Source: Gemmatimonadales bacterium
GTDB taxonomy: Bacteria > Gemmatimonadota > Gemmatimonadetes > Gemmatimonadales > GWC2-71-9
Assembly: GCA_041613315.1 (NCBI GenBank)
Contig: JBFJHJ010000007.1
Coordinates: 1-64,000, forward strand
DNA: 64,000 nt
Direction of reading: 5' to 3'
Shown piece by piece: positions 20,701 to 23,700 of this stretch. Position 1 is the first letter of the stretch. Each line of letters begins with the position of its first letter. The position numbers are program-made.

Positions 20701-23700
20701 GACCTCGCGGCCGTCCTCCCCGATGAGGACCACTTTCACCTGTCCGCCCGCCACGACGTAGAGCGCGTCGCCGGGATCGTCCTCAAAGAGGATCACGCTG
20801 TTCTTGGGATAGCTACGCTCCCGGGTGGCCTGGCTCACCCGGGCCAGCTCCGCCTCGCTCAGATGAGCGAACAACGGCACACGGCGCAGGCGCTCGGCGA
20901 CGGGGAGCGGCGAGCCTCGAGGGGATGTGATGGCCATAACGCGCCAAGATTAGGGCGCACGCCGTGGGCTGTCAATTCGGTGATGGGGGCGGCGCTTGCC
21001 CACAACTCCCTGTCACGGTTATATTTCCGCCTCTTTGATCGGGTTCTCGAGACCCGGGTTTTCGCGAGGAGCGAGCGGTGAAAGCAGGGATTCATCCGAA
21101 GTACGAGCGCGCGGTCGTCCAGTGCGCCTGCGGCAATACCTTTGAGACGCGGTCCACGCTGGCGCACATTCATGTCGAGATTTGCGCCCGGTGTCATCCG
21201 TTCTTCACCGGGAAGCAGAAGCTCGTGGACACCGCCGGTCGCGTCGAGCGCTTCCGGCAGCGGTACCAGACGGGCGCGGCGCCGAGCGAGGCCTGAGAAC
21301 CGATGGAAGCGCGGCTCGAGGCCGCGCTTGCCCGCGCGGCCGAGGTTGAGCAGCAGCTCGCCGACCCTGAGACGGCCCGTAAGCCCTCACAGCTCAAGGC
21401 GTTAGGCCGAGAGCACTCCCGCCTGCAACGCATCCGCAAGAAGGCCGCCGAGTATCACAAGATCCTCGATGAGCTGAGCCAGGCCCGCGAGCTGGCTCGC
21501 GACCCGGATCCGGCCCTCGCCGATCTCGCCCGTGACGACATCATGCGGCTGGAGCCCACGCTCGCCCGGGTGGAGGGCGAGCTCCACGACCTGCTCATCC
21601 CGCCCGACCCGCTCGACCATCGCGACACGATCGTGGAGATCCGCGCGGGGACCGGCGGCGATGAGGCCGCGCTGTTCGCCGCCGATCTGTTGCGCATGTA
21701 CACGCGCTACGCGGAGCGCCGCGGCTGGAACGTCGAGATGGTGGCACTGTCTGAGGGGAACGTCGGCGGCGTGCGGGAAGCCATCTTCAAGGTGAGCGGG
21801 GAGCAAGCGTACGGCCGGTTGCGCTACGAGTCGGGCGTGCATCGGGTCCAGCGTGTGCCGGCGACCGAGGCCCAGGGTCGGATTCACACCTCGGCCGCGA
21901 CCGTCGCGGTGCTGCCCGAAGCGCAGGAGGTGGACCTCGAGCTCGAGGCGAAGGAACTCAAGGTCGACGTGTTTCGCTCCTCGGGGCCCGGCGGCCAGAG
22001 TGTCAACACGACCGACAGCGCGGTGCGTGTCACCCACCTGCCCACGGGCCTCGTGGTCCAGTGCCAGGACCAGAAGTCCCAGCTCCAGAACAAGCTCCGC
22101 GCGCTGGAAGTCCTGCGCGCGAGGCTCCTCGACCGGATGCTGGCCGAGCAAGAAGCGGAGCGGGCGCGCGAGCGCCGGGCCATGGTCGGGACCGGCGACC
22201 GCTCGGCCAAGATTCGGACCTATAACTTCCCCCAAAACCGCGTGACGGACCACCGCATCAACCTGACGGTGCACCAGTTGGAGGACGTGCTCGAGGGCGA
22301 GCTCGAGGAGATCATCGACGCGCTCGCGCTGGCGCGCCGCGGCGAGCATGCCGTCGGCTGACACCGTGACGGGCACCGTGGCGGCCGCGGTGGAGCGGGG
22401 CACGACGCTCCTCGCGGCGGCGGGGGTGCACGATCCGCGGCGCGAGGCGCTCCGTCTGTGGAGCGCCCTGGCCGGGTCGTCGCCCGGCGCCGTCTGGCTG
22501 GTGCGGGGGCGGACGGCCCCTGCCGAGCTCCACCAGCGGTTCGACGCGGCCGTGGCCCGTTGCGCGGCGGGTGAGCCGCTCGCCTACGTGACCGGGCGGG
22601 CGGGGTTCCGCACGCTGGAGGTGGCGGTCGATCGCCGGGTCCTGATCCCCCGGCCGGAGACCGAAGGGCTGGTCGAGCACGTCCTGGCGTGGGCGAGCCG
22701 GCGCGGTGGCGGCGCCCTGCGGGCGCTGGATCTGGGGACGGGCAGCGGCGCTATCGCGTTGAGTCTCGCCGTCGAGGGGCCGTTCAGGGAAGTGGTCGGA
22801 ATCGAGCGCTCGGCAGCGGCGCTCGAGGTGGCTCGGAAGAACTGGCGGCGCGTGGCGCCCCGGACACCGGTCCGATTCCTCCGAGGGTCGTGGGGCGAGC
22901 CGCTGGGTGACGCGTGTTTCGACGTGGTCGTCGCCAACCCACCGTACCTGAGCGACGCGGAATTCGACGCCTTGGAGCCGGCCGTGCGGGCGTACGAGCC
23001 GCGGGAGGCGCTGGTGGGTGGGGCGGATGGGCTGGATCCCAGTCGGCTGCTCCTCCGGGGGGCCGGCCGGAACCTTCGTCACGGCGGGCTCCTGGCGCTG
23101 GAACTAGATTGCACGAGGGCCGAAGCCACGCTGGCGCTGGCACGGGCGACCGGTTGGGTCGGTGCCCGGCTCGAGCGTGATCTGTTCGGCCGCATCCGCT
23201 ACCTCTTGGCCACGGGGGATACCGAACCGTGATTCCGGAGAAGGCCCACGAGCTGGGGCGGCTGATCGGCCAGACCGACGATTTCAAGACGCTGCATCGG
23301 GCCCGCGAGGGCCTGCGGCAGGCCACGGAGCTGACCGGGAAGCTCGACCGCCTGGAGCGCCTGGCGCGCACGCTGGAGAGCCGCGCCCGCGAGGGGCAGG
23401 AGCCGCCGGAGGAGGAGGTTGACGAGTACGACCGCCTGTTGATGGAGGTCCAGGCCGATTCCCACTACCAGCAGGTGATCGCGGCGCAGTCGAACTTCGA
23501 CAAGCTGATGGTGCGGGTGAACCAGCACATCGTGGAGGGGATGGAAAAGGGCGCGCAAAGCTCCATCATCACCCTCGGCTGAACGAGCGGGCGTGGCCGG
23601 GCTGTTCGTCGTGGTGGAGGGACCCGAGGGGGCGGGGAAGACGACCCTGGTCGCGGGGCTCGCGCGCCGGGTGCGGGCGGCGGGGCACGAGGTGCTCGAG

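Follow-up and report, generated by a model that had tools for sequence, protein, structure and literature searches.

Across the Gemmatimonadota, RicT was found to be tied to RNase Y, and g713, the single YlbF-family protein of the host (a Gemmatimonadales bacterium), was tied to neither of them. The explanation that we prefer, to which we give slightly less than an even chance, is that RicT and RNase Y are the core of the system, that a further metal site is provided in cis by a cysteine-bearing loop of RicT, and that g713 is at most a non-essential accessory. The interest rests on RicT, whose gene lies outside the window (the whole stretch of 64,000 nucleotides of DNA that was analysed), and not on a two-component system of g713 and RicT for loading RNase Y, as the initial annotation had proposed.

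The ylbF gene g713 and its family

The g713 gene (23229..23582, + strand) encodes a Cys-free Com_YlbF protein of 117 aa. The open reading frame, the Pfam match (PF06133, E 2.8e-17, 63.6 bits against a curated cut-off of 23.9) and the single copy in the host genome together confirmed that this is a real, Cys-free, single-copy Com_YlbF gene. As read from the sequence, its start is a GTG that overlaps the prmC stop, and the order of the operon is prfA-prmC-ylbF-tmk. The prfA gene for release factor 1 (21303..22361, PCRF and RF-1 domains) and the prmC gene for the release-factor methyltransferase (22348..23232, PrmC_N and methyltransferase domains) lie upstream; tmk, for thymidylate kinase (23593..24216, PF02223), is directly 3' of g713, and an S41 tail-specific protease gene (24177..25886, PF03572 and PDZ), whose start is probably at 24264, comes after it, all of them on the + strand. 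Among 30 loci of the class, one of which belonged to an unpublished genome (G153), prfA and prmC were found 5' of ylbF in all 30, tmk 3' of it in 26 and the S41 protease gene downstream in 25. An Rfam search around the ylbF, ricT and RNase Y genes gave no match.

The model of g713 consists of five helices (pLDDT 94) and is helical up to residue 110, followed by a short, hydrophobic and conserved C-terminal tail that is unstructured in the monomer model. In an alignment of 62 sequences, conservation at positions G108, S111, I113 and I114 of this part reached 90% or more, and the conserved hydrophobic tail suggests a protein partner. We considered the PDZ protease encoded nearby as a binding partner of the tail, but an apparent export signal in the protease makes this unlikely. 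Cys was absent from 58 of the 62 aligned homologues and from the last 15 residues of all 62, in line with the Cys-free family described initially.

A Foldseek search with the g713 model returned DUF964, SP1372, RicA and RicF chains in all of its top 11 rows (E 0.002-0.03, TM 0.56-0.78; all E values above 0.001), the fold being the five-helix RicA/YheA type. With the single sequence, a PDB search gave chance helical matches only, and a profile was needed in order to obtain family matches, which were then ranked as SP1372 (E 5e-11), YheA (1.4e-6), RicA (1.7e-6) and RicF (6e-3). Scores of this profile were 47-51 bits on YheA-like proteins of Bacilli, 23-30 on RicA and 13-15 on RicF, and g713 scored 27.7 on the NCBIfam model for YheA, far below the cut-off of 200. 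In a quick tree of 90 rows by 106 columns, in which RicA and RicF had four rows each and labels were assigned from sequence, g713 fell in a group of its own (support 88, below the starred level), outside the separate RicA (97) and RicF (95) groups and outside the canonical YheA group (SH-aLRT 99). Lacking a Cys-bearing C-terminal tail and grouping with neither RicA nor RicF, g713 did not behave as an orthologue of either one. The YlbF proteins of the host class and of family f10, which belongs to another class, grouped together, and the nearest outside relatives were Cys-free proteins, one of them named from Dethiobacteria. A low-GC lineage (34-36%; L312-L316) also had a g713-type YlbF with a similar tail, its gene being followed by an RND/ABC transporter cluster and by murJ-murG.

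Distribution of ylbF, ricT and RNase Y genes

In the host, ricT is on contig C11 (about 18154-19218), flanked by accA and metG, and the RNase Y gene is on contig C9 (33675-35258), flanked by zapA and a folD-type gene; both are thus outside the window, on the contigs where they had been placed initially. Both products passed the NCBIfam cut-offs, RicT with 240 bits on NF041131 (cut-off 70); on PSP1, RicT scored 102 (cut-off 27). Host RicT has all six core Cys (C-x4-CC-x30-C-x4-CC) and a triad of extra loop Cys (C55-x3-C59-x2-C62). In the host genome (83% complete) rsmI was not matched, and holB was on contig C14, away from ricT.

RNase_Y_N was matched in 198, PSP1 in 196 and Com_YlbF in 185 of 201 genomes of the phylum; these tallies include four unpublished genomes (G053, G093, G153 and G178), and no conclusion rests on them alone. 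As had been reported for relatives, each positive genome had one Com_YlbF match, with the exception of the ambiguous G026 (two with Pfam, one with the family profile). Within the order, leaving out the host, we obtained 138/140 for YlbF, 137/140 for PSP1 and 139/140 for RNase_Y_N; the genes are thus widespread, as described before, but the shares given then (0.91, 0.76 and 0.84) were lower, probably owing to incomplete genomes.

The three genomes without RNase_Y_N also lacked PSP1, supporting RicT and RNase Y as a pair. In the two remaining PSP1-negative genomes an assembly gap seems to be the cause, with ricT at a contig end in G124 and accA also missing in G149. In G135, accA is directly followed by metG, showing a clean ricT deletion, RNase Y was not matched, and ylbF is intact (151.9 bits, compared with 153.1 in a congener). 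Lineages without RicT and RNase Y were two, one at L291 (G135) and one at L293 and L294 (G101 and G183). In family f9 (two genomes) ylbF, RicT and RNase Y were all missing, the strongest observation in favour of a shared pathway.

In 14 of the 196 RicT-positive genomes, distributed over six families, ylbF was not found and RNase Y was present, so that, judging from the genomes, a Com_YlbF partner is not required wherever RicT acts with RNase Y. Eight of these 14 genomes were searched again with the family profile and gave no match, the same profile matching three of three known carriers. In G138 (on one contig) and G110, prmC runs straight into tmk, a clean ylbF deletion, and RicT with the full triad and RNase Y were retained. 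In family f10, RicT was triad-less in 9/9 cases, and the single YlbF was Cys-free and had the tail seen in g713. These deletions, the intact ylbF of G135, the triad-less RicT of f10 and the position of g713 outside RicA and RicF speak against the two-component loading system put forward initially, and the two distinct Com_YlbF partners of RicAFT were likewise not found, there being one gene per genome.

The three genes had been described as unlinked, in agreement with our results: ylbF was not found in any of 163 ricT loci with flanks of 1.5-4 kb, and ricT linkage was observed neither in 47 Bacillota ylbF loci nor in seven metagenome loci of a related group. In f10, rsmI was located 3' of ylbF (5/5; L091-L095, L304-L307), and tmk and rsmI each flanked holB-ricT in 9 of 12 Bacillota loci; neither was near ricT in 19 loci of related phyla. 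This tmk/rsmI neighbourhood is a weak hint of an old linkage between ylbF and ricT.

Of 14 control genomes, Com_YlbF was matched in Bacillus, Lactococcus and Haloferax only, reproducing the earlier count, and Haloferax had it without PSP1 or RNase_Y_N. In Thermus, Deinococcus, Bacteroides and Thermotoga RicT and RNase Y were matched and Com_YlbF was not; the presence of RicT with RNase Y in diderms is ordinary. No Com_YlbF was detected in 19 non-Bacillota genomes of related phyla reached via named loci, nor in two further phylum samples (0/41 and 0/41), and a Bacteroidota-centred sample gave a single positive genome (1/51), with PSP1 in 33/51 and Com_YlbF in none of these 33 PSP1 carriers. Among Bacillota sampled around Desulfotomaculum, genomes with a single Com_YlbF match were the most frequent (49/91), Pfam possibly missing divergent Cys-tailed YlbF paralogues. 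Eighteen of the single-copy Bacillota genomes, chosen as the best-scoring ones and thus favouring YheA-like proteins, were read, and had a Cys-free YlbF tail in 16/18 and RicT in 18/18.

Some records were out of place. Class-type RicT beside accA was found in records titled Bacillota and Phycisphaeraceae, and RicT from a record titled Ignavibacteria grouped with Zixibacteria (these being among L101, L111 and L161); G340 (L289 and L290, in the Bacteroidota sample) had two tandem Com_YlbF genes and no PSP1. Mislabelling or contamination is possible in all of them.

Cysteines of RicT

According to passages of PMC6751060, cluster 1 of the Bacillus complex is ligated by RicT C161, C166, C198 and C203 and cluster 2 by RicT C167, RicF C134 and C146, and RicA C141, with RicT C204 not being a cluster ligand; the earlier statement that RicA and RicF supply three cluster-2 ligands was therefore correct. 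The same passages report that RicA forms homodimers, that the RicA and RicF tails are necessary for holding RicT, and that neither protein singly, at full length, made a stable complex with RicT. Passages of PMC10470536 propose that RicA and RicF hand RicT over to RNase Y, describe a wider distribution for RicT than for RicA and RicF, and state the role of the Ric Fe-S clusters as open. In passages of PMC12445100, gapA processing was altered in a S. aureus triple mutant that included YheA, and the role of YheA (Qrp) in RNase Y processing is not separated there from that of YmcA and YlbF.

In the model of host RicT the triad is located in a low-confidence loop that follows a short helix of the N-terminal beta domain, and pLDDT fell below 50 at residues 57-63, 167-181 and 205-212, exactly the Cys regions. 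A Foldseek search with this model returned nothing at E <= 0.001, and a PDB search by sequence found no RicT structure. For the PSP1 domain of the model (m75cd5f621fcc, residues 87-164) the best alignment was to RbfA, which has a type II KH fold (74 residues, Z 9.2, rmsd 2.0); residues 229-276 resembled Tudor-like barrels (Z about 6.8). This likeness of fold would be compatible with direct binding of RNA by RicT.

The loop was variable within the class. In a sample of 41 class members three loop Cys were found in 24, two in 15 and 0-1 in two, the spacing took x3-x2, x2-x2, x2-x3 and two-Cys forms, and the exact C-x3-C-x2-C was present in 10 of the 41. All 19 RicT of the host family that were read had three loop Cys, and none of 15 from the other classes of the phylum had the triad. 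C55, C59 and C62, described as invariant, are therefore present in the host and, as three Cys, in the members of its family that were read, but not as an exact motif throughout the class, nor as a triad in the 15 proteins from other classes. The core Cys were not invariant either: the C167 equivalent was kept in 23/41 and lost in 18/41, that of C203 was lost in three (kept in 38/41) and that of C204 in one (kept in 40/41). The C167 equivalent was missing in 11 of the 19 family members retaining all three loop Cys; in such proteins C204 or C197 would have to serve as ligand of a second cluster, unlike in Bacillus.

No triad was observed in RicT read from Bacillota (0/28) or from other phyla (0/31). 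In the RicT tree the host class was monophyletic (SH-aLRT 100), on the non-Bacillota side, and loop Cys were restricted to it, so the loop arose once, on the branch leading to the host class. Because the YlbF proteins of the class and f10 group together and the loop is only on the class branch, the Cys-free YlbF is older than the loop. The triad is consequently not an obligatory compensation for a Cys-free YlbF, as had been implied, RicT being triad-less in f10 (9/9) and in Bacillota with such a YlbF (16/16). The RicT of f10-f12, Calditrichia and Zixibacteria, and that of Bacillota with one Cys-free YlbF (16) or none (10), had no cis arm, and no Cys-tailed YlbF was detected alongside, suggesting that a second cluster may be optional; the combination of one Cys-free YlbF and a triad-less RicT, common in Bacillota, is not special to the host phylum.

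The sum of loop and core Cys was at least eight in 35/41 genomes of the sample and in 33/49 further loci, which may overlap the sample, and 5-7 in 6/41 and 16/49, respectively; the loop was down to 0-1 Cys in 2/41 and 5/49. Eight or more would be enough for two four-Cys clusters, and it is chiefly this sum that speaks for a second cluster in cis, although it reflects a handful of events, because the sequences are related, and has exceptions. Of 120 RicT homologues, 114 were parsed (six unparsable ones were left out) and showed four Cys patterns only, in each of which four or more Cys remain once the cluster-1 set is subtracted; an extra Cys at 197 accompanied every one of the 46 two-Cys loops among them.

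A radical-SAM reading of C-x3-C-x2-C, a motif of radical-SAM proteins, was rejected because the spacing varies. Some f2-type RicT (L085, L116, L126, L129 and L130) had no loop Cys and no C167 and retained a His-Gly in the loop; going by their sequences, they could be natural one-cluster controls. Scattered RicT (L148, L150, L153, L162, L163, L242, L243, L251 and L257) had Cys-rich C-terminal tails, possibly a third place for a cis module.

Readings of the loop and comparison with known systems

In the reading that we prefer, RicT and RNase Y, known from the literature as the entity that carries out processing, would be a conserved working pair, vertically inherited, in which, as alignment, tree and model show, RicT gained on the class branch a flexible loop of the N-terminal beta domain with two or three Cys. 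This loop would most likely hold a further metal centre, probably a [4Fe-4S] cluster that corresponds to cluster 2 of Bacillus, with the ligand set made complete by the spare core Cys that each lineage retains (the equivalent of C167, C197 or C204), and RicT would then be independent of ligands from another protein. g713 would represent an older, separate Com_YlbF subfamily that supplies no ligand and is dispensable for RicT and RNase Y; it is probably a helical homodimer, as passages of PMC6751060 describe for RicA, with a conserved tail that putatively binds some protein. The original suggestion that the triad replaces the ligands of RicA and RicF is hence plausible, given the Cys sum of at least eight in most of the sample, but a system joining g713 to RicT was not supported.

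The evidence on g713 also bears on an explanation in which its homodimer replaces the RicA-RicF scaffold that hands RicT to RNase Y, the loop giving the cluster-2 ligands in cis; we regard it as unlikely. g713 shares its fold with RicA and RicF and has a conserved tail, and RicA homodimerises and the RicA and RicF tails are needed for RicT, but RicA or RicF alone gave no stable RicT complex in Bacillus (passages of PMC6751060), and g713 is outside both groups and, as f10 indicates, older than the loop. The retention of ylbF in 185/201 genomes, against 0/41, 0/41 and 1/51 in related phyla, and the loss of all three genes in f9 are what such a loader would lead one to expect; however, 14 genomes dispense with it, ylbF is intact in G135, where ricT has been cleanly deleted and no RNase Y was matched, and Haloferax has Com_YlbF without PSP1 or RNase_Y_N. 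The flanking of Bacillota holB-ricT by tmk (the neighbour here) and rsmI (that of f10) is offset by the lack of ylbF in 163 ricT loci and of tmk and rsmI in 19/19 ricT loci of related phyla.

Another explanation, which we consider a serious possibility while placing it well short of even, is that the loop forms a small site of its own in the N-terminal domain, unrelated to cluster 2 (a redox disulfide, zinc or a three-Cys cluster), and that g713 is a YheA-like protein apart from RicT. The variable spacing of the loop and its decay to 0-1 Cys would fit an independent site, as would G045, whose RicT lacks any spare core Cys beside its three loop Cys, and one family with a His within the loop, in which the sequence would possibly permit a self-contained Cys3His site. 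Against it, the Cys total tends to stay at eight or more via different substitutions across families. The profile of g713 scored best on SP1372, followed by YheA, and highly on Bacilli YheA-like proteins, but the protein lies outside the well-supported canonical YheA group.

Bacteroidota RicT offers a parallel case for a cis cluster, since an N-terminal arm with 2-7 Cys was present in 30/30 proteins read (one counted by eye), without YlbF. More generally, and with a confidence that stays below even, we propose that a movable Gly/Cys-rich arm ligates cluster 2 of RicT: in trans in Bacillota, through the RicA and RicF tails (passages of PMC6751060) or, as a variant that we found, one Cys-tailed YlbF; and in cis on RicT itself elsewhere, as an N-terminal arm in Bacteroidota and as the internal loop in class Gemmatimonadetes. 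Diderm RicT proteins would then have evolved, on at least two occasions, into RNase Y adaptors that load themselves and hold two clusters on a single chain. A literature search, limited to the papers that could be consulted and to their main text, found neither a cis RicT loop nor Ric proteins in this phylum. If true, a one-chain RicT with both clusters would open the way to structural, redox and RNase Y assays that need no three-protein complex, and RicT-dependent RNA processing would be extended to diderm phyla; g713 itself matters less, as a dispensable phylum marker that is unusual among related phyla.

Compared with the RicAFT (YmcA-YlbF-YaaT, Y-complex) system of Bacillus, the host likewise has RNase Y, a RicT with six core Cys and a protein folded like RicA and RicF. 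However, its only Com_YlbF has no Cys tail, falls outside the RicA and RicF groups and is dispensable, and RicT of the class has an extra Cys loop and often a replaced C167 or C203 equivalent. g713 resembles YheA, SP1372 and S. aureus Qrp (UPF0342) in its length of about 117 aa, its lack of a Cys tail and its best profile scores, and differs from them in its separate branch, its conserved hydrophobic tail and its prfA-prmC-tmk context. The Bacteroidota RicT/PSP1 proteins with an N-terminal Cys-Gly arm share with the host RicT extra cis Cys on the N-terminal domain and the lack of RicA and RicF, whereas their arm lies before the first strand, has 2-7 Cys and occurs with no Com_YlbF at all. Finally, the Cys-tailed YlbF of some Desulfotomaculum-type Bacillota is likewise a single Com_YlbF accompanied by a RicT, and its Gly/Ser/Cys-rich tail resembles the loop, but there the Cys are on YlbF, in trans, and RicT is loop-less.
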